DNA of 64,000 nt from Escherichia phage outra: the sequence record MN850645.1. One strand, 5' to 3'. Under the pieces are notes generated by a model. It worked only from the letters and a program-made list of their open reading frames with translations. It made no database searches and had not been told where the DNA came from. This document shows, in pieces, positions 9,179 through 33,264 of the stretch (the first letter of the stretch is position 1; each line of letters opens with the position of its first letter). Position numbers and translations under genes: made by a program.

Positions 9179-9542
9179 AAATATCCTCCCAAATCCAATA
9201 ATCATCTGTGTAAGTAGGATGCCTTTTATCCCACTCTGCTCTAGCCCAAGCAACCGCTGCTACCAACACATCACCATGACAAGGTTGAGGTGCGCAGAAG
9301 CAAACTAAGTCTTTCCCTTCTAATTCTAACAAATCCTCAAGAGTGATTTTACCACAACGAATTTGTTCCCACAACCACTCTTTATATCTTTGTATAGTTG
9401 ACCCTCGTGGTTCATCATCCTTTAACTTAAAAGGATTTGCAAACTTTGAGGCTTTTAACCCCATATGAGGCATAGCTCTGCCAATGTAAACTGCACCTTC
9501 AGGTATTACTTTACCTAAGTGGTAAAAATTTAATACTTTCAT
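9156..9542 (-). CDS. hypothetical Cys/His-containing protein (CFCAPQPCHGD)
   Basis: track start 9566 is TTG; ATG at 9542 overlaps upstream stop (TAATATG). Confidence 0.45.
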   Translation of the reverse strand: MKVLNFYHLGKVIPEGAVYIGRAMPHMGLKASKFANPFKLKDDEPRGSTIQRYKEWLWEQIRCGKITLEDLLELEGKDLVCFCAPQPCHGDVLVAAVAWARAEWDKRHPTYTDDYWIWEDIYEDYTRN

Positions 9543-9543
9543 A

Positions 9544-9894
9544 TTAACCCAAACACATCTGTGCAATCAAGCCCTGTATAAATTTATTAGCTTCTTTACT
9601 GTCGTAGTCAGTCTCTTCTGGATATCCATCTTCATCGTACACAACTGTACCTTCAATATACCCTGCCTCAATTAAGGCGCGGATCATATCAAATTGCCAG
9701 CATGAGTTACCAAATGGACGTTTACCATTAAAACACTCTTCTTCTCTCCATAACGTAGAGAGTAGTTGTCGGAAATATTCCCGTACAGTGACAGTACCAA
9801 GATCTGAATCCTCAAACATAACATCCAGGGCATCAGGATTGCTTTTCTCTACGTAAGGAATATATTTAACACCATTAATAGTTACATCAAGCAT
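9544..9894 (-). CDS. hypothetical protein (116 aa)
   Basis: ORF in operon orientation. Confidence 0.5.
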   Translation of the reverse strand: MLDVTINGVKYIPYVEKSNPDALDVMFEDSDLGTVTVREYFRQLLSTLWREEECFNGKRPFGNSCWQFDMIRALIEAGYIEGTVVYDEDGYPEETDYDSKEANKFIQGLIAQMCLG

Positions 9895-17196: not shown

Positions 17197-18369
17197 ATGA
17201 CAGCACCAAAATCATGGGAACAATATAAAGAAGAATTAACACCCCTTGCTAAAAATCGCAATATTCAAATCCTGGGTTATGTTGGTGAATGGAAAGGGAA
17301 CAAGACTAAACTTAAGCTATCTTGCCCTAAACATGGAGAGTGGAACACCACGAACATTAATGATTTTAAGAAGGGACGTGGTTGTCCTATCTGTTCTGGT
17401 AAGAAGCCGTTAACATGGGAAACAGAATTGCCGATCTTGGAAGAGATAGCACAGAAGAGGGGGTATCAGGTGTTAGGGTACGTGGGAGAATGGAAAGGGA
17501 ATAAAACAAAACTTGATTTGTTGTGTCATTGTGGTAATAAATGGGATACTACAAGTATTAACAATTTTAAACGTGGTAGCGGTTGTCCACAATGTAAGAG
17601 GGAGAGACAAACAATGTCCGACGATCAACATATTGCAGATTTCTTTTCTACAGGGGAATTTAAGGAAGGCACTATCTTCACCAATACAGGGAAACGTAAC
17701 AAGCGTGATGCAGTATGGATGGTTGAGTGTCCTGTTTGCTCCCATGATGAATATGTTCAAGCAGGTGTTTGTGATGGTAAATTTTACTCTGCAGGACATA
17801 ACCTTAAACAAGGGTATATTCCGTGTCGTTGTGGGAACTATCAGTATACAGAAGACCAGATCACCTATAGGGTAAAAAAGGAAGTAGAAGGGAAAGGGTA
17901 TGTCTGGGTAGATTGGATTACCAAACCCTCTTCTATAGGTAAGTTTAAATATCTTTGTCTTGTGCATGGTGAGCAGATAGGGAGTGCTCGTAATTTATTA
18001 AGCCTCGGTCAAGGTTGTCCACAGTGTGCTGGTCATAATCAACAGCAATTATATATTAATATTGTTAAAGATAATGATATTATAGTTGCTCTTAAGTTTG
18101 GTATATCTAAAGATAGCGATAGACGATTAAACGGTCAAAATAGCCGTAATCTGTTTTTTATGGGGCGTATTTGTTTATATGATTTTAGCACAGTGAAACA
18201 ATGTAGGGCTGCTGAAAGAGCTATAAAGAAAAAATTAAAAACTGGTATTTTAACGGCAAGAGAGTTGAAAGATGGTTATACAGAAACAGTAAGTGTTTCT
18301 GATTTGGAAAATCTTCAAAAAATTATTACACAATATGGTGGCAAATTAGTATACAGTAAGGAGATGTAA
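17197..18369 (+). CDS. Zn-ribbon-repeat protein with C-terminal T5orf172/GIY-YIG-like domain
   Basis: three repeats of about 40 aa each ending in CxxC (GCPICSG, GCPQCKR, GCPQCAG); C-terminal LYINIV...ALKFGISKDSDRRL resembles T5orf172/MUG113 motif; AAGAGGAG SD. Confidence 0.5.
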   Translation: MTAPKSWEQYKEELTPLAKNRNIQILGYVGEWKGNKTKLKLSCPKHGEWNTTNINDFKKGRGCPICSGKKPLTWETELPILEEIAQKRGYQVLGYVGEWKGNKTKLDLLCHCGNKWDTTSINNFKRGSGCPQCKRERQTMSDDQHIADFFSTGEFKEGTIFTNTGKRNKRDAVWMVECPVCSHDEYVQAGVCDGKFYSAGHNLKQGYIPCRCGNYQYTEDQITYRVKKEVEGKGYVWVDWITKPSSIGKFKYLCLVHGEQIGSARNLLSLGQGCPQCAGHNQQQLYINIVKDNDIIVALKFGISKDSDRRLNGQNSRNLFFMGRICLYDFSTVKQCRAAERAIKKKLKTGILTARELKDGYTETVSVSDLENLQKIITQYGGKLVYSKEM

Positions 18370-18921
18370 ATGCGGATTACTGATAAGTATGTGTTCTTCT
18401 TCTCGGCAAAAGATGAATTTAGCAACTGGTATCTATCATCTTTTATTGAACCTTTAGCTCCCAAGTATAATAATTCTATTACAAGTTCTGTTGAATTTAC
18501 TTGTGTGGAACAATATATGATGTGGAGAAAAGCATGTTTGTTTTATGATTACAACATTGCATCTTCTATTTTAACCGGAGATCTAAGATATACAGGAGAA
18601 AAAGAACAGGCATATTATAAGCGACTAGGTAGATTAGTTAAAGATTACGATGAAGCTACTTGGACTTCTTTACGGGAGAAGATTGTCAAGCGTGGTTTGT
18701 ATCTTAAATACACACAAAATGAAGATCTCAAAAATAAACTTATCGCTTACGCAGATAAGGAGTTCGTAGAGGCAAGCCCTTATGATTCTATTTATGGTAT
18801 CAAAATGGGAATGTGGGATCGTGATGTGGAAAATAAGGACTGTTGGAAAGGACAAAATCTTTTAGGAAAATGGCATACAGACCTTGCTGTTTATCTAAAA
18901 GCACAATCTGATATTTCCTGA
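18370..18921 (+). CDS. NADAR-family (YbiA-like, DUF1768) protein
   Basis: FFFS..DEFSNW, EQYMMWRKA and FVEASPYDSIYGIKMG blocks match the YbiA/NADAR pattern; ATG overlaps upstream stop (TAAATG). Confidence 0.65.
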   Translation: MRITDKYVFFFSAKDEFSNWYLSSFIEPLAPKYNNSITSSVEFTCVEQYMMWRKACLFYDYNIASSILTGDLRYTGEKEQAYYKRLGRLVKDYDEATWTSLREKIVKRGLYLKYTQNEDLKNKLIAYADKEFVEASPYDSIYGIKMGMWDRDVENKDCWKGQNLLGKWHTDLAVYLKAQSDIS

Positions 18922-19136
18922 TATTTTGAAAATTTTTATTTTTATAAAAAGGGGTGTGGGTTTCATGTACGGAAATCCACCCTCTGAATAATATATCCAG
19001 AGTAAATATTATTCTGTACTCTGTTAATAAAGTATTTAATTTGTTTGTTTGACTATGGTATCTGATCTTTAAAAGGCATACTATCTCTTAACTACTACTT
19101 ATAACAGAACAGTAAAATCATTTTTATAAAAAGGAC

Positions 19137-19340
19137 AAAATTATTTAAAGTTTTTACAGATTTTTGGGTACAAATTTTGAAAATGAAAAGTTCAAGTTTG
19201 GTCAAAATTATTTAAAGTTTTTGTACGTATTTCTATCCAGATTTTGAAAATGAAAACTTCAATTTTTTAAAAATTCCCCAGTTTATTTAAAGTTTTTTTG
19301 CCTTTTTCCGTAGAAAAATCAAAAATGAAAAGTTCAATTT
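19137..19340. repeat. three tandem imperfect direct repeats of about 67 bp
   Basis: each unit contains TTATTTAAAGTTTTT ... GAAAATGAAAAGTTCAA. Confidence 0.7.
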
Positions 19341-19363
19341 CGTGTTTTTATGGGTGTGCGTAT

Positions 19364-19472
19364 GATAATCATTTTCATTTGTAAATGAGAATCATTATCA
19401 TTTAAGTATGTAAGTGATAATCATTCTCAGTAAGAGAATGAGAATCATTAGCAAATGAGAATTTTCTCATTT
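19364..19472. promoter_or_regulatory. cluster of Fur-box-like palindromes (AATGAGAATCATTATCA etc.)
   Basis: 19384-19400 matches 14/15 of the E. coli Fur consensus core ATGATAATCATTATC; further GATAATCATTCTC-type palindromes at 19416-19472. Confidence 0.5.
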
Positions 19473-19734
19473 AGAGAATAACGCGCAGGGGCGGTGTTTG
19501 TCTCGCGCTCCCGTGTCCCCTCGCCATACAATAAGAATAGCATAACCAACAACAAAAGCAAGCGATTATTTTTATCTTTACATTTCTTTACAAATTTATT
19601 TTAGACGAGCTACCGGCGATCAACCTTCCAACCAGTAGTGCCCTGGTATGTTAGCCCCGCCTTTACGCCGTGGGGGTGGCGCTTCCTCTTCTGTATGTAA
19701 AACAGTATAAGCCCGATCCCTGGGCTTGTCAAGA

Positions 19735-20001
19735 TTATTTTTTGTTTTCTTGCCAGGATAGGACACCTAGCCAAAAATACATGTCGCCCCGCGCCCCTGG
19801 CGGGATCTTGCTTTCCCCGCCGCCACTGCAAGCCCATAGATAACCATTTGCGAACGTATCAAAATGATCTATTTCTTCCACCTTATGATCGCCCAGGTTG
19901 AGAACGGTTTCAACCTTTAAGCCCGTTGCGCTTGCTACCTGGTGCACCGTGCCGCCTTGCCAGCCTAATGAGTGCATGAGGTGTAAAGTAGTATTTGTCA
20001 T
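19735..20001 (-). CDS. hypothetical protein (88 aa), GC-rich, divergent from island
   Basis: ATG 20001 with AAGGG SD; possible minus-strand promoter TTGCTA-18-TATTAT at 20049-20078. Confidence 0.45.
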   Translation of the reverse strand: MTNTTLHLMHSLGWQGGTVHQVASATGLKVETVLNLGDHKVEEIDHFDTFANGYLWACSGGGESKIPPGARGDMYFWLGVLSWQENKK

Positions 20002-20112
20002 GGTATCGCCCTTTCTTTGATGTGCGCCCTGGTTGGCGCGGTAGAAAGATAATAGCCCCTTTCCTTTATAGATAGCAAGCAAAAAAGAAATGAAAAAAGA
20101 TTAAAAAAGGGG

Positions 20113-20141
20113 TTGACGTTCCTCACCTGGTAGCGTATTAT
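20113..20141 (+). promoter_or_regulatory. sigma70-like promoter
   Basis: -35 TTGACG 20113-18, 17-bp spacer, -10 TATTAT 20136-41. Confidence 0.55.
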
Positions 20142-20268
20142 TCATCTTGTCGAGGGGGGCGAGGCACAACGACAATAAACAAAAGGAGGGCGCAATGCAG
20201 GACGGGCAAAGGTGAGGATCTCCACAATCCACCGTCACAATAACATTACTTATAAAAGGTTGATAACG

Positions 20269-20364
20269 ATGATCAAGAAAGAAAACAGCTTGACGGTTGG
20301 AACGATTAACGCTATCATTCTAGCCGTTCCATTTTGGATTGTAGTAGCGGTTATTATCTTTTAA
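20269..20364 (+). CDS. hypothetical membrane peptide (31 aa)
   Basis: hand-translated; hydrophobic; weak SD. Confidence 0.25.
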   Translation: MIKKENSLTVGTINAIILAVPFWIVVAVIIF

Positions 20365-20372
20365 AAATATTC

Positions 20373-20428
20373 TTGACAACGTTTTTTAATCTGATAAGAT
20401 GTATCACATAGGGCGGCAATAGTGCCGC
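20373..20428 (+). promoter_or_regulatory. sigma70-like promoter plus type-B leader hairpin
   Basis: -35 TTGACA 20373-78, -10 TAAGAT 20395-400, hairpin GCGGCA-ATAG-TGCCGC 20413-28. Confidence 0.6.
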
Positions 20429-20452
20429 TCATAACAGAAGAGAGAAATAATC

Positions 20453-20725
20453 ATGGCATCATATAGCGCATCAATGATCGTAGCTGGCATCACTGGTAAA
20501 CCTATGCGCGGTGGCGGATCTTTCGCTAACATCAATATTGATGGGCGTTTATCCCTGGATGCAGCGATCACCGTGGCACGGGAAACATTTAAAAAAGAAT
20601 GTAATTTCAATAAACAAGATTATCTCGGCTTCGTTATTGAAAAAACCGCGCGCTTTGTGGATTATAAAAGCCCGAAAATGATCGACACTACACTAAAAGC
20701 GCAAGATGTAGCGTTTTTGCTTTAA
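20453..20725 (+). CDS. hypothetical protein (90 aa)
   Basis: ORF downstream of promoter/hairpin cassette; host-like codons. Confidence 0.55.
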   Translation: MASYSASMIVAGITGKPMRGGGSFANINIDGRLSLDAAITVARETFKKECNFNKQDYLGFVIEKTARFVDYKSPKMIDTTLKAQDVAFLL

Positions 20726-20728
20726 GGC

Positions 20729-20789
20729 TTGACACTTAAAAATAATTTTGTAATATATACCACATAAGGCGGGGAAATGGTTTCCCGCC
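20729..20789 (+). promoter_or_regulatory. sigma70-like promoter plus type-A leader hairpin
   Basis: -35 TTGACA 20729-34, -10 TAATAT 20751-56, hairpin GGCGGGGAAA-TGG-TTTCCCGCC 20768-89. Confidence 0.6.
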
Positions 20790-20811
20790 AAATCAAAGAA
20801 AGGGTAATGCA

Positions 20812-21174
20812 ATGAGCAAGCAAATCAATACTATCATGTTAAACCTGGTATCTTTCCGCGACGACGTGAAAAATCTTCCACGTGATGCAGTGGATGCACG
20901 GATCGAAAGCTATCGCTCACAGATCGCAACGCTACCGCTAAAACGTGATCAACATGCCGCTAATATGATGCTTAATGCTATGCTTAAAAAGATGATTCAA
21001 TGTGATCTTACCCTGGCTTATGAATATGCTGGCGATCTCTTTGTAACATATAGCAAGCCCGTACCAGGTATGAGCACAACCGAAGAATTGCATGCCTTAA
21101 ATCTGCGACAAGATGCATGGGATAACATGCGCCGTGTTATGGTATGGGTAGAAAGCGGTAAAATTTACGAATAA
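20812..21174 (+). CDS. hypothetical protein (120 aa)
   Basis: AAAGGG SD; downstream of cassette. Confidence 0.55.
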   Translation: MSKQINTIMLNLVSFRDDVKNLPRDAVDARIESYRSQIATLPLKRDQHAANMMLNAMLKKMIQCDLTLAYEYAGDLFVTYSKPVPGMSTTEELHALNLRQDAWDNMRRVMVWVESGKIYE

Positions 21175-21180
21175 AAACGG

Positions 21181-21234
21181 TTAACATTGCACTAAAACCT
21201 GATAAGCTATCTTAAAGCGGGAACTATTCCCGCT
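21181..21234 (+). promoter_or_regulatory. weak promoter-like sequence plus leader hairpin variant
   Basis: TTAACA-16-TAAGCT, hairpin AGCGGGAA-CTA-TTCCCGCT 21216-34. Confidence 0.35.
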
Positions 21235-21252
21235 TACATAGGATAAAACTTT

Positions 21253-21402
21253 ATGAAACAATATGTAATGAGTATTCACACCAAAAACGGCGCTACTGTT
21301 ACAACTCCGGCACGGTTTGCACTTGTAAACCGTTGCAAGAGACTAAAACGAGAGTTAAAAAATAACCGTGCAACGGGCTGCTTTAAACGCTGGGGAGGAT
21401 AA
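21253..21402 (+). CDS. hypothetical small protein (49 aa)
   Basis: hand-translated. Confidence 0.4.
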   Translation: MKQYVMSIHTKNGATVTTPARFALVNRCKRLKRELKNNRATGCFKRWGG

Positions 21403-21404
21403 TC

Positions 21405-21677
21405 TTGTTTTTTCTAAAAGTTTTTGATAATGTGATCGCTTTTGAACATGCTACAACGTTCAACCTGGCGAGATACGCTATCAGGTTTAAAGATAATGTT
21501 TATCCCCGTGCTGGTGGCGGTTACACTATCTTTAATCATCGTAACGCTCAATTAACAGATATAACGAATCCAGATCCTGGAGTGTATCGCATAGGCTGGC
21601 TACCGTCAAAAGACGCGGCAAGCATGTTTAAGGTGTGTAAACTACTAACAGAAGAGGCGAACGAACATGGGGCGTGA
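21405..21677 (+). CDS. hypothetical protein (90 aa), TTG start
   Basis: GGAGGA SD before TTG. Confidence 0.45.
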   Translation: MFFLKVFDNVIAFEHATTFNLARYAIRFKDNVYPRAGGGYTIFNHRNAQLTDITNPDPGVYRIGWLPSKDAASMFKVCKLLTEEANEHGA

Positions 21678-22221
21678 ATATGTGATCCAGTCATGGGTAA
21701 AGCATGACGCTAATGATCCGCGCATAATACCAGATGACATGATCGATCACATGGTAGGGTACAGCGGGGAGCAGATAGGGAATCGAGCGGCAAAGAGCAA
21801 CGGGCACACAAAGACGCGATCCGTTCGCCCTGGTTGGCTGGCAAATGGTAACGCTGACATTGCAAGCGCCGCAGATCCAAGCGATGACGCTAAAAATAAT
21901 CCCTTATATAGCATTGATCCGGCTTTTAAGGTGTTAGAAGAGTATCCCGCTAAATTAGCCGCACTAGATAAGGCATACGAAGAAAAGCGCATGGCATGGA
22001 CTGTATACAACACCGCTAAAATGGTGCTAGATGCAAAATTGATTAAAGCCCAGGAGAAGATCAATAAACTTGTTGCAGTAGCGCAAGAGGAAGACCAGGA
22101 CGACCAGGAGGAAGAGGAAGAAATCATGCCTACCCTGGAAGAGGAAGAGATCCAGCCATACATGCCGACGGAAGAGGAAAAAAGACAAGCCCTAAAAAAT
22201 TATGAAAATTGCATTGTGTAA
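21667..22221 (+). CDS. hypothetical protein with acidic C-terminal tail (184 aa)
   Basis: ORF; C-terminus QEEDQDDQEEEEE. Confidence 0.5.
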   Translation: MGREYVIQSWVKHDANDPRIIPDDMIDHMVGYSGEQIGNRAAKSNGHTKTRSVRPGWLANGNADIASAADPSDDAKNNPLYSIDPAFKVLEEYPAKLAALDKAYEEKRMAWTVYNTAKMVLDAKLIKAQEKINKLVAVAQEEDQDDQEEEEEIMPTLEEEEIQPYMPTEEEKRQALKNYENCIV

Positions 22222-22224
22222 GGC

Positions 22225-22280
22225 TTGACATATGCAAATAAGCCCCGTAATATGTACCACATAAAGCGGGGCAACGCCCC
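22225..22280 (+). promoter_or_regulatory. sigma70-like promoter plus short GC hairpin
   Basis: -35 TTGACA 22225-30, -10 TAATAT 22248-53, hairpin GGGGC-AAC-GCCCC 22268-80. Confidence 0.5.
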
Positions 22281-22302
22281 ATAAAGTGAAATAAAAAATC
22301 AC

Positions 22303-22330
22303 TTGACACCTGAAATCAGTAAGCTATAAT
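22303..22330 (+). promoter_or_regulatory. consensus sigma70 promoter
   Basis: -35 TTGACA 22303-08, 16-bp spacer, -10 TATAAT 22325-30. Confidence 0.65.
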
Positions 22331-22367
22331 GCTTATATAGATTGAAACATTACTAAGGAATAAAAGC

Positions 22368-22547
22368 ATGGCTATTATTGCAAAAACTGAGATCGTAGGT
22401 TTAGATTCTATCATCCTGGCATATGAGGAAGCTGTAGAAATGTATGTGGTTTCCTATGGTGATTATATCCGTGAATATAAATCTATTGATCTAGCTTTTG
22501 AATGCTATATTCGCCAGGTCAATAAAGCATATGATGATTATCGTTAA
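22368..22547 (+). CDS. hypothetical small protein (59 aa)
   Basis: hand-translated; AAGGA SD. Confidence 0.45.
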   Translation: MAIIAKTEIVGLDSIILAYEEAVEMYVVSYGDYIREYKSIDLAFECYIRQVNKAYDDYR

Positions 22548-22566
22548 AAGTTTTAGTCTTGTGCTA

Positions 22567-22595
22567 TTGACAACGAACGATAGTACAAGCATAAT
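22567..22595 (+). promoter_or_regulatory. sigma70-like promoter
   Basis: -35 TTGACA 22567-72, 17-bp spacer, -10 CATAAT 22590-95. Confidence 0.5.
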
Positions 22596-22642
22596 AACTT
22601 TTATCGGGAATACTCCTAACTAATCAAAAGAGATTAAAGACT

Positions 22643-23008
22643 ATGGCTAAAAATATCAATGTTTCTGCTTATGCTACCCTGGCTAACACTGCTAAAATTG
22701 AACTATCTAGCATTGAAGCGGTACATATTAGCGCCCGTCGCTGGTTTCAAAAGTCTTATGGTAACACTTATTTCTCTTTGATGGTTGACGTTGAGATCGG
22801 CGGTAAACTGATCGAAGTCGTTAACGTTCCGTTTCACTATGGCTACGGGGATCATTTTGATACCGTTGCCCTAGAAGAGTTTAGCAAGGTTATCAACCTG
22901 GAAGGTAAAGAGTTTTCAAATTATGCCTACCTTTCCCGTTTTTGCCGTGATAATGGGATCGCTGTATACAGTCATGCAAGCGATGTTAAACGTAAAAAAG
23001 ATTTATAA
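22643..23008 (+). CDS. hypothetical protein (121 aa)
   Basis: ORF downstream of promoter. Confidence 0.55.
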   Translation: MAKNINVSAYATLANTAKIELSSIEAVHISARRWFQKSYGNTYFSLMVDVEIGGKLIEVVNVPFHYGYGDHFDTVALEEFSKVINLEGKEFSNYAYLSRFCRDNGIAVYSHASDVKRKKDL

Positions 23009-23014
23009 AAAGCA

Positions 23015-23079
23015 TTGACAGCACGAATAAAAAGCGTAAAATGTTTCATATCAGGACGGGGAACGAAGTAACACCCCGT
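23015..23079 (+). promoter_or_regulatory. sigma70-like promoter plus hairpin (no ORF immediately downstream)
   Basis: -35 TTGACA 23015-20, -10 TAAAAT 23037-42, hairpin ACGGGG...CCCCGT 23056-79. Confidence 0.45.
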
Positions 23080-23128
23080 TAAGTAGCCCAGGAGTAAGGC
23101 ACACGAAAAACTCCCCTGATAAAATAGT

Positions 23129-23186
23129 TTGACAATGGTTTCTAATAACGTATAATACTTACATCGAGAGCGGGAACACTTCCCGC
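23129..23186 (+). promoter_or_regulatory. consensus sigma70 promoter plus leader hairpin
   Basis: -35 TTGACA 23129-34, -10 TATAAT 23151-56, hairpin GCGGGAA-CAC-TTCCCGC 23170-86. Confidence 0.65.
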
Positions 23187-23211
23187 CTCACTGAAAAAAG
23201 AGATTAACATC

Positions 23212-23451
23212 ATGGCTAAATCTAAAATGTTCTTAGGTCACAAAAACAAAACTCATTGGAATGTAAGCCTTTGGATCAACAACGATGAAGGTTTTTATAA
23301 TCTTGCGCGTGAATTTATCGCAGCTAACACCAATAAGAATGACGCAGCGCGTGATATGATGTTATTTCTTGAAAGTATGGATCAAGATAAAACGCCAGAC
23401 GGTTACAAGTTCAGTAAAACCGCGATCCGTGCCGCTATGGTTGGAATGTAA
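23212..23451 (+). CDS. hypothetical protein (79 aa)
   Basis: ORF downstream of cassette. Confidence 0.55.
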   Translation: MAKSKMFLGHKNKTHWNVSLWINNDEGFYNLAREFIAANTNKNDAARDMMLFLESMDQDKTPDGYKFSKTAIRAAMVGM

Positions 23452-23546
23452 AGGAGACATAAAAATGAAACATCGTTCGACCTATCTCACAAAACGTTTT
23501 AGCTTAGATCATAAATTGGGCTATTACGGAAGAAATAGAAAATAAT

Positions 23547-23606
23547 TTGACAACGTTTTAAATTAGTGTAAGATATATCACATAGGGCGGGAAATGGTTT
23601 CCCGCC
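23547..23606 (+). promoter_or_regulatory. sigma70-like promoter plus type-A leader hairpin
   Basis: -35 TTGACA 23547-52, -10 TAAGAT 23569-74, hairpin GGCGGGAAA-TGG-TTTCCCGCC 23586-606. Confidence 0.65.
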
Positions 23607-23628
23607 AAATCAAAGAAAGGTTATCATT

Positions 23629-23856
23629 ATGGCTATCATTATTGTTCGCGTATCCGGTACGGTTGGAAGCTCCCAGGTAGTAGCAGTTATCACCGAGAAG
23701 AAAGGGGATGATCTTCACTCTTCCTTGAATAGCTGGGCGGTAGCTAACTTCGGGCAATGGTCGAGCGTTGAGTACATCGAATCCTACCAGGTGCCAACGA
23801 TTAGCCTAACCGATCTAAATGTTGATCGCTTGTTGTGCCTGGATGGATTAAACTAA
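23629..23856 (+). CDS. hypothetical protein (75 aa)
   Basis: ORF downstream of cassette. Confidence 0.55.
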   Translation: MAIIIVRVSGTVGSSQVVAVITEKKGDDLHSSLNSWAVANFGQWSSVEYIESYQVPTISLTDLNVDRLLCLDGLN

Positions 23857-23864
23857 AAATAATC

Positions 23865-23920
23865 TTGACAAGATAACTAAAATCAGTAAAATGTAATGCA
23901 TAGGGCGGCAATAGTGCCGC
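23865..23920 (+). promoter_or_regulatory. sigma70-like promoter plus type-B leader hairpin
   Basis: -35 TTGACA 23865-70, -10 TAAAAT 23887-92, hairpin GCGGCA-ATAG-TGCCGC 23905-20. Confidence 0.6.
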
Positions 23921-23943
23921 TCCTAGTGAGAGAGATTATCAAA

Positions 23944-24156
23944 ATGGCTAATATCCGCACACTGTTAAAAAATGCAAAACAAGTTTTATTTTCTGATCAC
24001 GATCATTTTAATAAAGATATTACAGGCGTGAAGAATATCAAAGAGGTAAAAAGTGTTATGGGTATCTATTGCAATATGAAGCGAGTAGGCACATTTGGTG
24101 ATAAAGTATTATATCAGGCAGGTGACTACAATTTTACTTTGACAATTATCAACTAA
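23944..24156 (+). CDS. hypothetical protein (70 aa)
   Basis: start moved to ATG 23944 (track start 23896 lies inside promoter/hairpin). Confidence 0.5.
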   Translation: MANIRTLLKNAKQVLFSDHDHFNKDITGVKNIKEVKSVMGIYCNMKRVGTFGDKVLYQAGDYNFTLTIIN

Positions 24157-24167
24157 GGGATCACAAA

Positions 24168-24326
24168 ATGAAAACTTGCCAATGTGGTAAAAAGTCTATC
24201 TCTGGTTTAAAACGTGGCGTTGCTCTTTGTCAATATCACTATAACGCTCAAACGTGGGGTAAGCAGTGGGCGGATCAGGTGGAAGAGGCAAAGAAAGAAA
24301 ATATAAAAGTAGTTGCAAAGAAATAA
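24168..24326 (+). CDS. small Zn-ribbon-like protein (52 aa)
   Basis: hand-translated; CQCG...CQYH motif. Confidence 0.4.
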   Translation: MKTCQCGKKSISGLKRGVALCQYHYNAQTWGKQWADQVEEAKKENIKVVAKK

Positions 24327-24373
24327 AAATAGAGTAAACTGTATTCATCAAGGCGGTGGAATAGCTCACCGCC
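24313..24373 (+). promoter_or_regulatory. promoter-like sequence plus leader hairpin variant
   Basis: TTGCAA-16-TAAACT, hairpin GGCGGTG...CACCGCC 24352-73. Confidence 0.4.
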
Positions 24374-24397
24374 TAACAAAGAGAAGAGGAAAACATC

Positions 24398-24568
24398 ATG
24401 ATCACTTTCGCTACCCGTGAAGCCGCTCGCAACGTTGCACGTAAAGTTAATGCCGCCAACCTGGGCGCTACGCTTAAAGCCCCGGTAAAAGATGAATCAG
24501 GTAAATGGATCTTTCCTGGTCTGCGTCACGCTGATAAGCTGGGAACATTAACGTTAAAAAATAAATAA
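24398..24568 (+). CDS. hypothetical small protein (56 aa)
   Basis: hand-translated; GAGGA SD. Confidence 0.45.
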   Translation: MITFATREAARNVARKVNAANLGATLKAPVKDESGKWIFPGLRHADKLGTLTLKNK

Positions 24569-24575
24569 TATCCGC

Positions 24576-24634
24576 TTGACAGTAGCATGGTTTATAAGTA
24601 AAGTAACAACAACGGCGGGAAATGGTTTCCCGCC
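24576..24634 (+). promoter_or_regulatory. sigma70-like promoter plus type-A leader hairpin
   Basis: -35 TTGACA 24576-81, -10 TAAAGT 24599-604, hairpin GGCGGGAAA-TGG-TTTCCCGCC 24614-34. Confidence 0.55.
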
Positions 24635-24654
24635 ATCAATAAAGAGATAAGATT

Positions 24655-25014
24655 ATGAAATCAGTAAAAGCAATCAAAACTTACATTGTATCGGCTATTT
24701 CTTTTGAAGGTACTACAACCGAAAAAGAAAAAATCACCGAACTGATGCGCCGTTTTAATTCTGAATACTGGTATCCCGATAATCAAAAACGTTACAATTA
24801 TAACGTGATCAAGGCGATAGCCTCATGGTTACAAGGTTTACCGTCAGACATTAACATTGCCTTTGATTATAACGAGATTGATCATTTATTAATTGAATGG
24901 AAGTACATAAAAGAAACAAGCAAAGAAACAACCGTTACCCGTGAGCGGGAAAATTATTGGTTATATATTGCAAGCATGATCGTAATCCTGGCAAAACAGC
25001 ATAACGTGGCGTAA
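24655..25014 (+). CDS. hypothetical protein (119 aa)
   Basis: ORF downstream of cassette. Confidence 0.55.
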   Translation: MKSVKAIKTYIVSAISFEGTTTEKEKITELMRRFNSEYWYPDNQKRYNYNVIKAIASWLQGLPSDINIAFDYNEIDHLLIEWKYIKETSKETTVTRERENYWLYIASMIVILAKQHNVA

Positions 25015-25029
25015 TTAAGAGGAAGAAAC

Positions 25030-25167
25030 ATGAACGCATCACAGCAGATCGAAAAATTCAACCGCAGCAAGGCGCGTAAAGATTGGAACGAAGAGATCAC
25101 CAAAAAAGGCGACAAGCGGAACAAAACAAAAAGAGATCGCAGCACAAAAAGATACTGGAACGAATAA
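25030..25167 (+). CDS. hypothetical small basic protein (45 aa)
   Basis: hand-translated; GAGGA SD; Lys/Arg-rich. Confidence 0.4.
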   Translation: MNASQQIEKFNRSKARKDWNEEITKKGDKRNKTKRDRSTKRYWNE

Positions 25168-25174
25168 CAAAAAA

Positions 25175-25196
25175 GGGCGCAATAAGCGCCCTTTTA
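25175..25196 (+). terminator. rho-independent terminator
   Basis: GGGCGC-AATAA-GCGCCC stem-loop followed by TTTT. Confidence 0.65.
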
Positions 25197-25286
25197 GCTT
25201 ATATAGGGGCTTGTTACCCATAGGCAATGGTAACGCCAGGGCAAGCCTATAAATCAACGTTAGACGGCTTTACAGGAGCTTTAAAA

Positions 25287-25469
25287 ATGAGATTAGAAGA
25301 AATAAGCAAGGCACTAGACCAGGAGCAAAGGTTATGCGCCCGATATCGTGATCAATATGGCTTCATAACTAGCGGCGTGATCCTGGGGATGGAAGGCAAT
25401 AAGATTTTTATTGACACGTTGAAAAACGTTGTATATAGTGACAATATAATCTCAATAAAACATATATGA
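25287..25469 (+). CDS. hypothetical small protein (60 aa)
   Basis: start moved to ATG 25287 with AGGAG SD. Confidence 0.4.
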   Translation: MRLEEISKALDQEQRLCARYRDQYGFITSGVILGMEGNKIFIDTLKNVVYSDNIISIKHI

Positions 25470-25477
25470 GGCAAGAA

Positions 25478-25879
25478 ATGAAAAACTTATTGATCGCTGG
25501 TTTAATCTCTTTTGGCATGGTTGGAACATCTAGCGCGGCGATATCCTCCACAGTAGCAGAATTAAGCGCCGTTGATGCAATGGAAAACGTCATGCTTATT
25601 AATAATGCGATCCCCGATGAAATCATGGAGGATTCACACATGATCGCTTATGGTGCTGTTACACAACTAACGGCAAAAATAGATAAATCTATTGTTAATG
25701 GCTTAAATGAAGATGTACCATGTGAAATTATTACCAGTGTGCTGACTACTCAAAATTTTACGCCGTGGTTAAAAAGTATTCAAAAAGTACACAGTACAGC
25801 CGCAGATCGTAGCAATGAAAAACTAGTGTCAGCACTTGCAACGTATACCCTAGCAAAATGCACTGAGATAAAAGATTGA
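25478..25879 (+). CDS. putative secreted/periplasmic protein
   Basis: MKNLLIAGLISFGMVGTSSA signal-peptide-like N-terminus; GAGG SD. Confidence 0.5.
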   Translation: MKNLLIAGLISFGMVGTSSAAISSTVAELSAVDAMENVMLINNAIPDEIMEDSHMIAYGAVTQLTAKIDKSIVNGLNEDVPCEIITSVLTTQNFTPWLKSIQKVHSTAADRSNEKLVSALATYTLAKCTEIKD

Positions 25880-25904
25880 CAACATAGAAAGCACGTTATA
25901 AGAT
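25876..25904 (+). promoter_or_regulatory. sigma70-like promoter
   Basis: -35 TTGACA 25876-81, 17-bp spacer, -10 TAAGAT 25899-904. Confidence 0.5.
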
Positions 25905-25926
25905 ACACACAACAAAGGAGAACTAC

Positions 25927-26229
25927 ATGAACGGCATAGCTAAAACGTTTTTTCTTTTTTCTGGTGTAAATGATCCATCAATAAAAGTCGATAGTGTAAA
26001 AGAAAAAAATACTATCACCGCTAAATTGTTTCAAGATGAAACAAATAACGTGCTAATCATTAATCTTAAAGAAGTAACGAAAGGTTATTATACTATTGCT
26101 TACCATGCGATCTATCATGCTGGTACTGGTGAGGAAGTGCAAACAAGCAACAACGAAAGCGCGGCGCTACCTGGTGATCTGGTGCTGGGCGTTATCAGTT
26201 TAATTGTCAATGATTTTTTTAAGGAGTAA
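25927..26229 (+). CDS. hypothetical protein (100 aa)
   Basis: AAAGGAG SD. Confidence 0.55.
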   Translation: MNGIAKTFFLFSGVNDPSIKVDSVKEKNTITAKLFQDETNNVLIINLKEVTKGYYTIAYHAIYHAGTGEEVQTSNNESAALPGDLVLGVISLIVNDFFKE

Positions 26230-26233
26230 AACC

Positions 26234-26329
26234 ATGCCCTATTTACATTTATTTTTCGGTATCTTATTAACAGGATCTTTTTTCTTCTGTATGCTTGTTT
26301 CTATTGTAAACCACGTTTTAAGACATTAA
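26234..26329 (+). CDS. hypothetical membrane peptide (31 aa)
   Basis: hand-translated; AAGGAG SD; hydrophobic. Confidence 0.35.
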   Translation: MPYLHLFFGILLTGSFFFCMLVSIVNHVLRH

Positions 26330-26338
26330 GGAAACAGC

Positions 26339-26458
26339 ATGAAAATTATTCCCGTACAATATAGCGTAATAAATCCAGCATATGAGGAAGGAAGGAAAAC
26401 AAGCATGGCTTTATGTTGTATTGCTACTATAGCCATGTTGTTATACATTGTGTTTTAA
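26339..26458 (+). CDS. hypothetical membrane peptide (39 aa)
   Basis: hand-translated; AAGGAA SD; hydrophobic C-terminus. Confidence 0.35.
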   Translation: MKIIPVQYSVINPAYEEGRKTSMALCCIATIAMLLYIVF

Positions 26459-26487
26459 TAGGTTTTATAGTTGTACGCTTTAAAGGC

Positions 26488-26516
26488 TTGACAATTTTTT
26501 GTTATGCTTTAAACTA
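26488..26516 (+). promoter_or_regulatory. promoter-like sequence (good -35, weak -10)
   Basis: -35 TTGACA 26488-93; -10 candidate weak. Confidence 0.3.
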
Positions 26517-26558
26517 TATCTTGAAAACGGCAAAGGCCGCAAACAAAAGGGTAAAATT

Positions 26559-26882
26559 ATGAAATCTGTGATCGGTGTTTATTTGGATAACTCTGATTTT
26601 TTCTATCATCGCGCGCGTTTACTTGATGCTATTGAAATGATAGAATCAGGCTTTAAAGAGTATCGCCTTGCACATGATGACCTGGAAGCATTACAGGGCA
26701 ATAGTGTTTTTACATTGCAAGCGAAAGCACTATGCAAAAGCCGGATCGAGATTGCAAGTAAAAAGATAGAGCGCGGCATGTCCTGGTTGCGCACCGCAGA
26801 AATCAACATGGGGCAATGGTACGGCGAAAACTTAGAAAATAAACATGCTTTTGTCAATGTAGAAAATATTGAAGATTATTGA
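26559..26882 (+). CDS. hypothetical protein (107 aa)
   Basis: start moved to ATG 26559. Confidence 0.5.
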   Translation: MKSVIGVYLDNSDFFYHRARLLDAIEMIESGFKEYRLAHDDLEALQGNSVFTLQAKALCKSRIEIASKKIERGMSWLRTAEINMGQWYGENLENKHAFVNVENIEDY

Positions 26883-26944
26883 TTGACAGCACACCGAACG
26901 GGGAGTATATTGTATCTCATAGAGCGGGGAAATGGTTTCCCCGC
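26883..26944 (+). promoter_or_regulatory. sigma70-like promoter plus type-A leader hairpin
   Basis: -35 TTGACA 26883-88, -10 TATATT 26906-11, hairpin GCGGGGAAA-TGG-TTTCCCCGC 26924-44. Confidence 0.6.
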
Positions 26945-26964
26945 CTTAAAAGAAGAGATAAGCT

Positions 26965-27249
26965 ATGAAGATCACAAAAGCACTTTCCAACTATGCAGCA
27001 CGTCGCGGCTTATGTTTAACCGTTGAAAACCTGGGGAAAGAAGATTTTTTGTGCTTTTGGGAGCTTGAGAATGATAATGAGTGGATCTTCTCTTATTCTA
27101 TCTGCGAAGATCAAAACGGTTGTTTATTAGCCTGGCGCGGTAATATCTATCTACCGGAAGAAATCAAAGAAGAATTACCAGGCACGATCATGACTGAGAA
27201 ACAGCTTAAGGAAGTGATCAATTTTGTAGGGCAAAACATTAAAAAATAA
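26965..27249 (+). CDS. hypothetical protein (94 aa)
   Basis: ORF downstream of cassette. Confidence 0.55.
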   Translation: MKITKALSNYAARRGLCLTVENLGKEDFLCFWELENDNEWIFSYSICEDQNGCLLAWRGNIYLPEEIKEELPGTIMTEKQLKEVINFVGQNIKK

Positions 27250-27250
27250 T

Positions 27251-27307
27251 TTGACACTAGGCAAACAACGTAGTAAAGTTTATCACATAGGGCGGCAATA
27301 GTGCCGC
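27251..27307 (+). promoter_or_regulatory. sigma70-like promoter plus type-B leader hairpin
   Basis: -35 TTGACA 27251-56, -10 TAAAGT 27274-79, hairpin GCGGCA-ATAG-TGCCGC 27292-307; leader nearly identical to 20401-20452. Confidence 0.6.
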
Positions 27308-27330
27308 TCATAACAGAAGAGAAACAAATC

Positions 27331-27501
27331 ATGATCCCAACTATGTTTTATGTATCGCGCAAAGGTCACAATATTTTTTGGTCTGAAGATTTAAATGAAG
27401 CCATGACGTTTGCCCGTGATCGTGTCGCTATCGGTGGCGTTAACATTACCGTAACCGATGAAAATGGCATTGAATACTATAACGGCGACGATGAAGAGTA
27501 A
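27331..27501 (+). CDS. hypothetical small protein (56 aa)
   Basis: start moved to ATG 27331 (track start inside hairpin). Confidence 0.5.
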   Translation: MIPTMFYVSRKGHNIFWSEDLNEAMTFARDRVAIGGVNITVTDENGIEYYNGDDEE

Positions 27502-27508
27502 TTAATGA

Positions 27509-27529
27509 GGCGGGGGAATATTCCCCGCC
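27509..27529 (+). promoter_or_regulatory. intercistronic leader-type hairpin
   Basis: GGCGGGGGAA-TA-TTCCCCGCC between two ORFs without a recognisable promoter. Confidence 0.45.
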
Positions 27530-27548
27530 GTCAATAAAGAGGTAAATC

Positions 27549-27818
27549 ATGAAAATATCATTGGACGTTGCAATCAAGGCCATCGAATCCGGTTACACCC
27601 TGGTAAAAGATGATAAGGCTAAAATAGTGCATCATGTTAACAAGGAAACAGGCGAAAGCATGATCACATATAAAGCCGCCTACTTTCTCCAATCAGTAGC
27701 AGATCCGCGCGTACAACGCCAGGTTACGGCGGCTATTGCTAAAAAAGTATGTGCTTTACAGGGTACAAGTTTTAACGAGATCGCCCCGTGTTTTGACTGG
27801 TCGAGCTTGAAAAAATAG
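27549..27818 (+). CDS. hypothetical protein (89 aa)
   Basis: GAGG SD. Confidence 0.55.
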   Translation: MKISLDVAIKAIESGYTLVKDDKAKIVHHVNKETGESMITYKAAYFLQSVADPRVQRQVTAAIAKKVCALQGTSFNEIAPCFDWSSLKK

Positions 27819-27819
27819 T

Positions 27820-27847
27820 TTGACAATATGCGGTTATCTGGTAAAGT
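27820..27847 (+). promoter_or_regulatory. sigma70-like promoter (degenerate hairpin follows)
   Basis: -35 TTGACA 27820-25, -10 TAAAGT 27842-47. Confidence 0.5.
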
Positions 27848-27899
27848 GTACGACATAGGGCGGGGCAATAAGGCAACGCCCACTAATGAGGGTAAAATC

Positions 27900-28004
27900 A
27901 TGTTAGAGAAAATTTTCACGGTTGTAGTAGTGGGCCTGGCGTTATCGGTTGGAGTGATTGCAACTATGGCTAACATGATCCTATCTTCCCACGGTATTGG
28001 ATAA
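27900..28004 (+). CDS. hypothetical membrane peptide (34 aa)
   Basis: hand-translated; GAGGG SD; hydrophobic. Confidence 0.35.
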   Translation: MLEKIFTVVVVGLALSVGVIATMANMILSSHGIG

Positions 28005-28014
28005 GGTGAATCAA

Positions 28015-28230
28015 ATGATCACGAATAAGACAGGTAAAACAGAATTTTTACGCGGCTTGCAAATTGGTAAACCTGAAATATGGCATTGCACTAAATCCGC
28101 GCATAATGAGATGAAAGACTTTACCGCCACGTTACAACGTGTTAAAATATCTATTACGCAGAAAAAAGCCTTATTAGTAGTAGAAAACGAGATACCGCAA
28201 ACCATTATTATTGTCGAGCGTACAGCATGA
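28015..28230 (+). CDS. hypothetical protein (71 aa)
   Basis: start moved to ATG 28015 with AAGGTG SD. Confidence 0.45.
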   Translation: MITNKTGKTEFLRGLQIGKPEIWHCTKSAHNEMKDFTATLQRVKISITQKKALLVVENEIPQTIIIVERTA

Positions 28231-28613
28231 AAACTGAAATCATTATTGAAATCATCAACGGTTATAAAGAAGCCTTTATTTTTGCTGAATCAGCCAGGGA
28301 TCATGAAGGTAATTTTGTAAACGACATGACTGACTATGATTTTTCAGATCAAGCCCATCAGCGGATCATTCATGACGTAGCGGCTTATTGTGATGCCAAT
28401 GATGCTGCTATCTCTGAGGCAATGAGCGACGGCGCAACAGCAAACCAGATCGGGAATGACTTACATTTCACCCGTAACGGTCACGGCGTAGGCTTTTGGG
28501 ATCGCCCTGAAATATACACTACTAACACCGCCAACCGCCTAACAAATGCAGCTAAATTAATGCCATCGGTGCATGCTTACATTGGTGAAGATAATTTGAT
28601 TTATATTGAATAA
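28227..28613 (+). CDS. hypothetical protein (128 aa)
   Basis: 4-nt overlap with upstream gene. Confidence 0.55.
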   Translation: MKTEIIIEIINGYKEAFIFAESARDHEGNFVNDMTDYDFSDQAHQRIIHDVAAYCDANDAAISEAMSDGATANQIGNDLHFTRNGHGVGFWDRPEIYTTNTANRLTNAAKLMPSVHAYIGEDNLIYIE

Positions 28614-28619
28614 AAAGTA

Positions 28620-28678
28620 TTGACACCGATCCCCGATATGTTATTATTTACCACGTAGGCGGGAAATGGTTTCCCGCC
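28620..28678 (+). promoter_or_regulatory. sigma70-like promoter plus type-A leader hairpin
   Basis: -35 TTGACA 28620-25, -10 TATTAT 28642-47, hairpin GGCGGGAAA-TGG-TTTCCCGCC 28658-78. Confidence 0.65.
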
Positions 28679-28702
28679 AGGTAATCAAAAAAGGTAAATA
28701 CT

Positions 28703-29092
28703 ATGCGCAACCTGGTTTCTGTTTCTAACGTTGAAAAATTTCAATCCTTGCAGGGTATCGTTAACAACGTAGCGCCTTTTCTAGTCAATGGCTTGATTGC
28801 AAAGATGAAAAATAAACATCATGCAGCATGGTCTGCTTACTGCTTTGATAATGATGAAAAAGCGGCTGAAATGATGTTAAATATGCTGTTAGATAGTGTA
28901 GAATCATCTTTACCGGAAAACATCGCAGAAGAGATCACCTATCGTTATAATATGGCGATCACCTATCAGGAGGTTGCGCAATTCAATATGATGGACGATG
29001 ACGAACAACAGGATCAGGAAATGTTTTGGGAATATGCAGATCGTCAATCGGCTTTTGATGAAAAGTTAGCGATGTATTATAACGAATATTAA
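28703..29092 (+). CDS. hypothetical acidic protein (129 aa)
   Basis: AAAGG SD; downstream of cassette. Confidence 0.55.
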   Translation: MRNLVSVSNVEKFQSLQGIVNNVAPFLVNGLIAKMKNKHHAAWSAYCFDNDEKAAEMMLNMLLDSVESSLPENIAEEITYRYNMAITYQEVAQFNMMDDDEQQDQEMFWEYADRQSAFDEKLAMYYNEY

Positions 29093-29108
29093 TACACGGT
29101 AAAAGAAA

Positions 29109-29133
29109 GGGGCGCACTAAGCGCCCTTTTTTG
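29109..29133 (+). terminator. rho-independent terminator
   Basis: GGGGCGC-ACTA-AGCGCCC stem-loop followed by TTTTTTG. Confidence 0.7.
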
Positions 29134-29477
29134 TATTCTTTTTCACGATGGAAGTAACACGTAAAGAATAAACGTAAGAGGTGGCGTAAAACAGCCTAAA
29201 ACCGATTATAACCGCTTAAACAAGGTAGTAATGACTAATCACCTTGCCAGGATGAAAAAGCTGTTATAAAGCTATCTAGAGCGTTTAAAGCACATAGGAA
29301 ATAATTTGCTTTTTATCTTGCCTTTTATCCTGCTTTTGATTATTATTATGGAACGGGCGGCACCTGGGGACAGGGGAAGATAATCACCGGAAGATCCCGC
29401 TATATATTAATAGCTAATACCTATCAAACAACAAAACATCAAAGGAATAAACTATCAAATCTTTACAATCCTACCTA

Positions 29478-29537
29478 TTGACACAGGATCACCCTTATAC
29501 TAATATGTATCCCGTAGGGCGGGAAATGGTTTCCCGC
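29478..29537 (+). promoter_or_regulatory. sigma70-like promoter plus type-A leader hairpin
   Basis: -35 TTGACA 29478-83, 17-bp spacer, -10 TAATAT 29501-06, hairpin GCGGGAAA-TGG-TTTCCCGC 29519-37. Confidence 0.65.
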
Positions 29538-29556
29538 TTGATATAGGAATCATACC

Positions 29557-29790: not shown

Positions 29791-29865
29791 CTTGCTTTAT
29801 AGCCTCTGTTAATTTATAGTTATCGTGTAGGGCAAACAATTTTAAACGGTAAACGAGGAATCACC

Positions 29866-30249: not shown

Positions 30250-30263
30250 ATAACATTTCAAAC

Positions 30264-30292
30264 AAGGGCGCTTATTGCGCCCTTTCTTTTTA
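30264..30292 (+). terminator. rho-independent terminator (end of island)
   Basis: AGGGCGC-TTATT-GCGCCCT stem-loop followed by TTCTTTTT. Confidence 0.7.
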
Positions 30293-33263: not shown

Positions 33264-33264
33264 C

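Follow-up and report, generated by a model that had tools for sequence, protein, structure and literature searches.

What does a cluster of Fur-box-like palindromes do in the genome of a lytic phage? Fur boxes are textbook promoter operators, and an earlier note on DNA of Escherichia phage outra (sequence record MN850645.1), made from the letters alone, had proposed that several overlapping Fur-like sites place early genes under iron-responsive control or form an operator for a phage repressor that mimics Fur sites. The whole stretch of 64,000 nucleotides that contains the cluster (the window) was analyzed for the quality of the sites, their genomic setting, and their recurrence in other phages. 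The features of the locus are collected in Table 1.

Table 1. Features of the Fur-like array and its surroundings in the window.
Feature	Coordinates	Strand	Basis and remarks
NADAR-domain gene, last of the upstream operon	18370–18921	+	PF08719, E = 2.3e-36
Three imperfect direct repeats, 67–75 bp apart, TTATTTAAAGTTTTT ... ATTTTGAAAATGAAAAGTTCAA	19120–19340	+	Repeat search
Fur-like box 1, GCGTATGATAATCATTTTC	19358–19376		19.1 bits; 15-mer core with 1 mismatch; secondary match 6 bp off at 19364
Fur-like box 2, GTAAATGAGAATCATTATC	19381–19399		18.7 bits; 3 mismatches to 19-mer consensus; secondary match 6 bp off at 19387
Fur-like box 3, GTAAGTGATAATCATTCTC	19410–19428		16.1 bits; core with 1 mismatch
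Fur-like box 4, GAGAATGAGAATCATTAGC	19434–19452		19.8 bits; 16/19 to 19-mer consensus
Box 5, degenerate 20-bp palindrome AAATGAGAATTTTCTCATTT	19453–19472		9/10 symmetric, without central base; poor score
~215-bp non-coding block with invariant CTACCGGCGAT, TCTTTACAAA, and ACACCG	19476–19697	−	Cross-genus alignment
Sigma-70 promoter TTGACA-17-TATACT	19704–19732	−	11/12 match; points at block and array, 230 bp from array
Terminator-like hairpin of the minus-strand small gene	19709–19727	−	Overlaps the promoter spacer
Gene for 88-aa protein, phi92 gp224 homologue, PHROG 19316	19735–20001	−	Homology; own promoter present
Three sigma-70-like early promoters, at 20113, 20290, and 20373	20113–20400	+	10/12 each; open the run of small early genes
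Two Fur-like boxes, 30494–30512 (13.9 bits) and 30552–30570 (17.9 bits)	30494–30570		Matrix; ~230–290 bp past the early-block terminator
Counterpart of the BME3 342-bp direct terminal repeat	31423–31764		Contains boxes 31423–31441 (22.3 bits) and 31618–31636 (16.5 bits)

Quality of the Fur-Like Boxes

Every string quoted in the earlier note was found in place, and the match to 14 of the 15 positions of the Fur core was confirmed (ATGAGAATCATTATC at 19385–19399). The start of the cluster was corrected from 19364, as the first box runs from 19358/19363. Four of the boxes were strong Fur-box matches; the last palindrome (19453–19472) was degenerate and low-scoring. This fifth box is a decayed copy. 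The boxes were spaced by 23, 29, 24, and ~16 bp, with no helical phasing, and boxes 3 and 4 were poor palindromes but good Fur matches. Fur sites have been described to occur in clusters with overlaps offset by 6 bp (PMC2189734), and the secondary matches at boxes 1 and 2, each offset by 6 bp, fit this pattern. In Fur–DNA structures, a conserved G is contacted by Arg57 and thymines are contacted by Tyr56 (PMC4506495); on our own reading, these bases would match the invariant TGA/TCA ends of the boxes and their T residues.

Scores were obtained with a symmetrised Fur matrix derived from nine sites of eight known Fur-repressed E. coli K-12 promoters, cut from the K-12 genome. On this matrix, which was seeded with the consensus and holds nine sites only, the four strong phage boxes scored 16.1–19.8 bits and the training sites 12.4–18.8 bits, the latter range being inflated because these sites score themselves. 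Mismatches to the consensus numbered two to four in the phage boxes vs. three to seven in the best boxes of the eight K-12 promoters. The 15-mer core TGATAATCATTATCA, allowing up to two mismatches, gave 14 strand-hits in the window compared to 0.50 expected, a count that none of 100 shuffles reached, and half of these hits (7/14) fell in 19363–19453. The 19-mer consensus with up to three mismatches was matched five times in the window (0.09 expected). Beyond the sites of the earlier note, four further boxes were located in the window at 30494, 30552, 31423, and 31618.

The array lies inside a gene-free gap of ~800 bp (18922–19734) that is AT-rich and abundant in other repeats, which is the setting in which such boxes might arise as a chance by-product of repeat-rich non-coding DNA. 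The gap held six sites of at least 10 bits vs. 0.11 expected under a first-order Markov model of the gap itself (maximum of three in 2000 simulations), so AT-richness is no explanation for the cluster. The comparison of matrix scores with background that the earlier note had called for thus gave sites of 16–20 bits, and excluded AT-rich composition as their cause. The shuffle and Markov controls, together with the cross-genus conservation and the scrambled-palindrome controls given below, reject a chance origin, which we regard as extremely improbable. The Fur-like quality of the sites is strongly supported: they equal or better the host sites, they are kept across genera, and they carry secondary matches at 6-bp offsets.

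Source Phage and Setting of the Array

The 600 bp around the array showed 99.8% identity to Escherichia phage ESCO8 and 98–99% identity to phi92, alia, and ~55 other Justusliebigvirus genomes (blastn). The window is from a phi92-like lytic myovirus of the genus Justusliebigvirus, whose relatives are lytic myoviruses of 145–150 kb in the subfamily Stephanstirmvirinae. A host origin of the array was rejected, with only chance matches in a blastn search of 5,426 E. coli genomes.

Read from the left, the gap and the DNA around it contain the end of a plus-strand operon, three direct repeats, the boxes, a GC-rich inverted repeat, the ~215-bp block, a minus-strand promoter, and the gp224 gene. Near the gap, the plus-strand operon encodes an AAA ATPase, a CapR/T5orf172 endonuclease, and a NADAR protein. 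In the endonuclease ORF (17197–18369; PHROG endonuclease), located just upstream, CapR homology domains were recognized three times, along with weak similarity to T5orf172. Its length differs between alia and phi92, and it looks like an insertion of the homing-endonuclease type.

The Locus in Related Genera

Counterparts of the locus were aligned from phAPEC8 and phiWec186 (Phapecoctavirus), Klebsiella phage phi1_175008, PVP-SE1 (Seunavirus), Av-05 (L017), and six further IMG/VR contigs. All of the aligned loci share one order: three direct repeats, boxes, conserved block, minus-strand promoter, and gp224 homologue. The record of phi1_175008 begins beside the array; this was considered as a terminus and dismissed, since the record is circular and its start is arbitrary. 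The three direct repeats were present in every related genus examined, with a sequence specific to each lineage. In PVP-SE1 and Av-05 they read GGTTCTCGATCG...AAAATCGTATTT, with counterparts at 1200–1450 of L013 and 1490–1700 of L017. The repeats at 19120–19340 look like iterons, and lineage-specific repeats are the pattern that would be expected of iterons co-evolving with a phage protein.

At least one strong box was found at the same position, adjoining the block, in every related genus examined (GAATGAKAATCATTCTCATTT in PVP-SE1, Av-05, and others). Box 5 is the orthologue of this universally kept box, and its orthologue in phAPEC8 (AAATGATAATCATTCTCATTT) scores 20.7 bits. Within the Stephanstirmvirinae, the kept box is expanded to three to five boxes. 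Box 4 occurs only in Justusliebigvirus and was absent from the other three lineages of a four-lineage alignment. Column identity across the four lineages was 0.62–0.71 in the boxes and 0.40–0.67 in the linkers, not clearly higher in the former, and the notion that boxes are conserved and linkers are not was dropped as not clearly true by this measure. A score-retention test was used in its place, in which neutral mutation was simulated at 25–35% divergence. Approximately 0.3–0.9 sites of at least 12 bits were expected, whereas the three lineages whose arrays differ from the outra array by 30–40% keep two to four (P ≤ 0.036 for at least three sites of ≥12 bits; P ≤ 0.02 for at least two sites of ≥16 bits). 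By this simulation, the array does show constraint.

The ~215-bp block beside the boxes is nearly invariant in several stretches and is kept in at least five genera. It is probably transcribed leftwards and may represent an early non-coding transcript or a cis element acting at the DNA level. RNAalifold gave −16 kcal/mol with covariation of ~0, the hairpin was not conserved, and the z-score of the fold was +0.25. A structured, RyhB-like small RNA on the minus strand was therefore rejected on the weak RNAalifold result, a fold no better than shuffles, and the lack of an Rfam match; no Rfam match was obtained at E ≤ 1 over 18–33 kb, and no tRNA or tmRNA was found. The block had no counterpart in the 5,426 E. 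coli genomes by blastn. A conserved small ORF was likewise rejected, since the 18-codon ORF found here is broken elsewhere by 1-nt indels and loss of the ATG, as read from the alignment.

Promoters Around the Array

The minus-strand promoter retains its −35 and −10 hexamers in 11 of the 11 aligned sequences read, with a spacer of varying sequence. Hexamers kept while the spacer changes are good evidence that this promoter is functional. What lies downstream of it is the array, with no conserved terminator hairpin in between. No box of the array was found in the layout of a Fur-repressed promoter, over a −35/−10 pair or a start site.

A classical operator, at which bound Fur would occlude a promoter and render an early transcript or early genes iron-responsive, has its best case in the single-box lineages (PVP-SE1, Av-05, and L050). 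There, the box sits exactly between TTGAAT and a −10-like (C/T)AGAAT with an 18-bp spacer, oriented toward the block, which is the usual Fur-repressed layout; in the array itself, weak promoter-like matches reach 9/12 at best and are made by the motif itself. However, four of the 11 aligned sequences lack the A that is critical at the second position of the −10 element (CTGAAT, CGGAAT), the −35 spacing fails in the outra window, and the region downstream is devoid of an ORF, an Rfam family, or a fold signal. The real early promoters on the plus strand begin at least 640 bp from the array, behind the convergent minus-strand gene and its terminator. With 640 bp between the array and the first early promoter, and with no credible promoter over the boxes, the locus does not support a classical repression of early genes by Fur. 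The iron-responsive control of early genes suggested in the earlier note thus finds no support in the geometry of the locus, and we judge an operator of this kind to be rather unlikely.

Boxes at the Early-Block Far End and the Genome Termini

The array is 12.3 kb from the right terminus, and the early genes in between are bracketed by boxes (at 19.4 kb on one side, and at 30.5 and 31.4 kb on the other). Short direct terminal repeats have been determined by PhageTerm in the Justusliebigvirus phages BME3 (342 bp; PMC12210895) and FKP3 (317 bp; PMC11663894). Because 31423–31764 is the counterpart of the BME3 terminal repeat, the ends of the virion DNA fall in a 1.7-kb gene-free gap at 30250–31940. 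The best box of the window, with a perfect 15/15 core, has its first base (31423) at the boundary of this repeat, and the other boundary lies inside AAGGGGGTGTG. The FKP3 repeat is truly duplicated at both ends of its record and holds a perfect AATGAGAATCATTCTCATT at positions 40–58. Thus, the physical genome ends, as placed by these repeats, carry Fur-like boxes. Sites scoring 16 bits or more in the complete 147-kb genome of alia were confined to the array gap (four), a second gap of 1.7–1.8 kb in which the terminus lies (three), and one intragenic position.

Some other repeats were noted in the same regions. The first 100 bp of the FKP3 terminal repeat, perfect box included, occur as a third copy at 501–600 of the record. 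Between the 30.5-kb boxes and the terminal repeat, the DNA at 30580–30910 is very AT-rich (GC ~0.31) and carries many short repeats (ATCTAAC, TAACCTATAAAA). A AAAGGGGTGTG motif, AA(A/G)GGGGTGTG, was observed at 18948, 31760 (the terminal-repeat boundary), and 31837, each time at the edge of a gap or repeat. It was discarded as a signal, since 17 of 100 shuffles gave three or more copies and the count is not significant.

Arrays in T5-like Phages

By blastn, the array matched loci of Tequintavirus with 75–83% identity over 69–106 bp. In phages Kenya-K44 and Gostya9, the large untranslated region found at the terminal repeat's inner edge contains 6–12 of the same palindromes, with DnaA boxes and a perfect LexA box to one side and a GC hairpin and repeated GTCGGATTTGCACA units to the other. 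The counterpart in T5 (AY587007, 9468–9637) corresponds to copies 1–4 of the annotated direct repeat C and palindromes E–I of Repeat Region 3, with the motif TTTTTAAATGAGAATCATT..., AAATGAGAATCATTATCATTTGC. A distance of 24 bp separates the end of the T5 array from palindrome J, a hairpin with T residues after it, and from the annotated 7.9% single-strand nick (region 9468–9668). Palindrome D of T5 was identified as a perfect LexA box, CTGTATAAATATACAG (AY587007 9330–9349; 8624–8639 in K44, L185), situated between the paired DnaA boxes and the array. With LexA, DnaA, and Fur-like sites together, the T5 injection-stop region holds consensus sites for three host regulators.

The shear point of first-step transfer in T5 was calculated at 9618, and the region has been considered a candidate injection-stop signal with DnaA as the proposed factor and no mention of Fur (comparative study by Davison, bioRxiv 10.1101/866236). 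This point falls inside copy 4 of direct repeat C. In the literature searched, direct repeat C and palindromes E–I had neither an assigned function nor a link to Fur, and full-text searches returned nothing linking Fur boxes to T5-like, phi92-like, or lytic phages. Of the features of the T5 injection-stop region, the outra locus has the array of the C/E–I-type motif and lacks the paired DnaA boxes. DnaA boxes (TTWTNCACA) were absent from the gap and from 18834–35626, and the whole window had eight compared to 11.6 expected; T5-like DnaA boxes beside the array were accordingly ruled out.

Arrays in Metagenomic Phages

A scan of IMG/VR with the pattern AATGAKAATCATTMTCATT returned at least 120 loci with the palindrome vs. 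two and seven for a pair of scrambled palindromes matched in composition. At 41 of the 126 IMG/VR loci examined, at least three sites fell inside a 300-bp span. The array-bearing contigs include some that are unrelated to T5 or rV5 phages, with 38–54% GC and three to six palindromes (L031, L061, L062, L071, L094, L101, L125, L134, and L135). Among their gene products are portal, terminase, DNA polymerase, or tail proteins, and megablast gave no close isolate relatives for them. A terminase gene was present within 1–2 kb of the array in three of the four metagenomic families read. In the tests run, the T5-like and the unrelated metagenomic phages had no detectable protein in common with the phi92-like phage.

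Candidate Binding Proteins

The simplest reading of a palindrome that recurs in unrelated phages is that a conserved host protein binds it and, judged from the sequence, this protein would be Fur. A phage-encoded Fur homologue was sought by tblastn with an approximate query, which returned noise only (E ≥ 1.8). The 19 proteins of the K44 first-step region gave no match to the phi92-like phage. Homologues of gp224 were found in 151 records, and among the 40 listed, all were from rV5-like phages and none were T5-like. A common host factor is the simplest binder, since neither a phage Fur nor a protein shared with the T5-like first-step region was detected, and the listed gp224 homologues are confined to rV5-like phages. 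On these sequence comparisons, we consider it probable that Fur binds the boxes.

The other possibility is that the boxes are operators of a phage-encoded binder, gp224 or another early protein, and that their likeness to Fur sites is coincidence or mimicry. The gp224 protein is conserved, small, and encoded beside the module in every lineage; regulators often adjoin their own sites, and many of the early ORFs have no known function. A stretch of gp224, GGTVHQVASATGLKVETVLNL, resembles a helix-turn-helix, although this is an impression only, and the protein had no Pfam match and hence no Pfam DNA-binding domain. Arrays of the same kind in T5-like and unrelated metagenomic phages argue against such a binder, given that gp224 homologues were confined to rV5-like phages among the matches listed and that no T5-like first-step protein matched the phi92-like phage. 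Moreover, what is maintained in boxes 3 and 4 is the Fur consensus and not mere self-complementarity. A phage repressor that mimics Fur sites, the second proposal of the earlier note, is therefore disfavored by the same arrays in phages without a detectable shared protein, and we hold a phage-encoded binder to be unlikely.

Function of the Array

The array is located at the inner edge of a 12-kb early-gene segment that reaches the right terminus. Transcription converges on it, with the plus-strand operon ending from the left and the conserved leftward promoter firing across the block from the right. The features that stay constant among the phages are a position downstream of a strong promoter without a conserved terminator, between convergent units, on either edge of the early block, within the terminal repeat, and at the T5 first-step boundary. 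Because these features are positional and not a matter of promoter context, a barrier or architectural role is favored. Our preferred reading, which is tentative and to which we give a probability of roughly 0.4, is that the array comprises conserved, cis-acting, high-affinity sites for host Fur that would serve as a barrier or architectural element and not as a promoter operator. Iron-loaded Fur would coat the four or five boxes and create a protein–DNA barrier or boundary. This barrier could keep leftward transcription, or other processes that track along DNA, from crossing between the early segment and the remainder of the genome, and the boxes located past the other end of the early block and in the terminal repeat may do the same job there.

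The analysis shows the quality of the sites, their occurrence beyond chance, their conservation, where they lie in the genome, and their recurrence across phage families. From these findings we infer that Fur binds, and that its effect is that of a barrier or architecture, as opposed to titration, a role in an origin, or control of DNA entry. To our knowledge, there is no direct precedent for Fur as a transcription roadblock or boundary, and blocking under iron-replete conditions offers no obvious benefit to a lytic phage. The iteron-like repeats and the conserved block could equally mark a replication origin.

The last point leads to a reading in which the module is part of a replication origin or DNA-processing site, its palindromes acting as a DNA structure or unwinding region with or without Fur as an accessory. 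It is consistent with the three lineage-specific direct repeats, the AT-rich palindromes, the conserved block, and the promoter firing into them, as well as with boxes that fall inside the terminal repeat and on its boundary. In addition, the AAA ATPase encoded 2.2 kb upstream weakly resembles helicase-loader and clamp-loader families. However, the gap has no DnaA boxes, and the GC skew turns at 14 and 44 kb, where it tracks gene orientation, and not at the array. The T5 counterpart is also far from the central replication origins reported for T5 (10.1101/866236), and the boxes are closer to the Fur consensus than a simple unwinding element requires. An origin at this locus seems improbable on balance.

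Titration of Fur was weighed as a further use of the sites. Multicopy Fur boxes derepress the Fur regulon, an effect on which the Fur titration assay is built, and the ~9–11 strong sites of each replicating genome could act as a decoy or sponge that derepresses host iron uptake and RyhB and supplies iron to the iron-dependent ribonucleotide reductases of the phage. The sites lie outside promoters and in clusters, like titration loci, and alia encodes class I and anaerobic ribonucleotide reductases. However, titration needs hundreds of genome copies, so a sponge would act late in infection, and it would have no need of a fixed and conserved box position. T5 degrades host DNA within minutes. Derepression of the host would be pointless after this early destruction, yet the T5 arrays are the largest. 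We therefore consider a sponge to be a doubtful explanation, and not a probable one.

The arrays might instead be a cis signal for staged DNA entry, with host Fur loading on the array upon its arrival in the cell and halting or gating genome transfer at a fixed point. The T5 stop would then be the 7.9% first-step point inside the array, and the stop in phi92-like phages would lie 12.3 kb from the right end. We regard this as very unlikely. If true, the terminal early genes would be expressed first, infection would be coupled to the iron/Fur state of the host, and phi92-like myoviruses would also inject their DNA in two steps.

Significance and Comparison with Known Fur-Site Systems

Arrays of Fur-like boxes without promoters in virulent phages are a real, conserved, and apparently undescribed class. 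Consensus-grade arrays of this type in several virulent genera, in or near genome termini, and in unrelated families point to an unrecognized phage use of a global host regulator. Direct repeat C and palindromes E–I of T5, which the T5 record annotates only as repeats and palindromes at the first-step stop, would gain an identity. If Fur binds, iron status could matter for candidates for phage therapy from the phi92, phAPEC8, and rV5 groups.

The Repeat Region 3 of T5 is similar to the outra locus in its motif, in the large untranslated region that holds 4–12 copies of it at a terminal early segment's inner edge, and in the GC-rich hairpin that comes next. It differs in its DnaA boxes, LexA box, nine D repeats, and 7.9% nick. 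A 10-kb terminal repeat contains the T5 array or ends with it, whereas the array here lies 12.3 kb from a terminal repeat of 342 bp.

The Fur boxes of E. coli (ryhB, fepD-entS, fepB-entC, fhuA, cirA, and fecI; consensus GATAATGATAATCATTATC) share with the phage boxes the 19-bp pattern, the TGA...TCA inverted repeat with an AT-rich core, the secondary matches at 6-bp offsets, and the clustering, and the phage scores equal or exceed those of the host. Host boxes overlap −35/−10 elements, while the phage boxes have no credible overlapping promoter and form discrete units 16–29 bp apart in a gene-free gap of a lytic phage. Sites away from promoters are known from the upstream Fur-site cluster of E. 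coli ftnA, where Fur displaces H-NS, and from datA, which titrates DnaA. These resemble the array, by analogy only, in that several regulator sites away from a promoter may act by occupancy or architecture; the phage gives no evidence of a role for H-NS or of titration.

Fur boxes on phage DNA are themselves familiar from temperate phages, an example being the Fur box of the stx1 promoter. In lambdoid coliphages, Fur boxes have been reported upstream of sitABCD (PMC6969025). Like the outra array, these are functional-looking Fur boxes on phage DNA. In each of them, however, a single operator serves a cargo-gene promoter in a lysogen, in contrast to the promoter-less array of a virulent phage described here.
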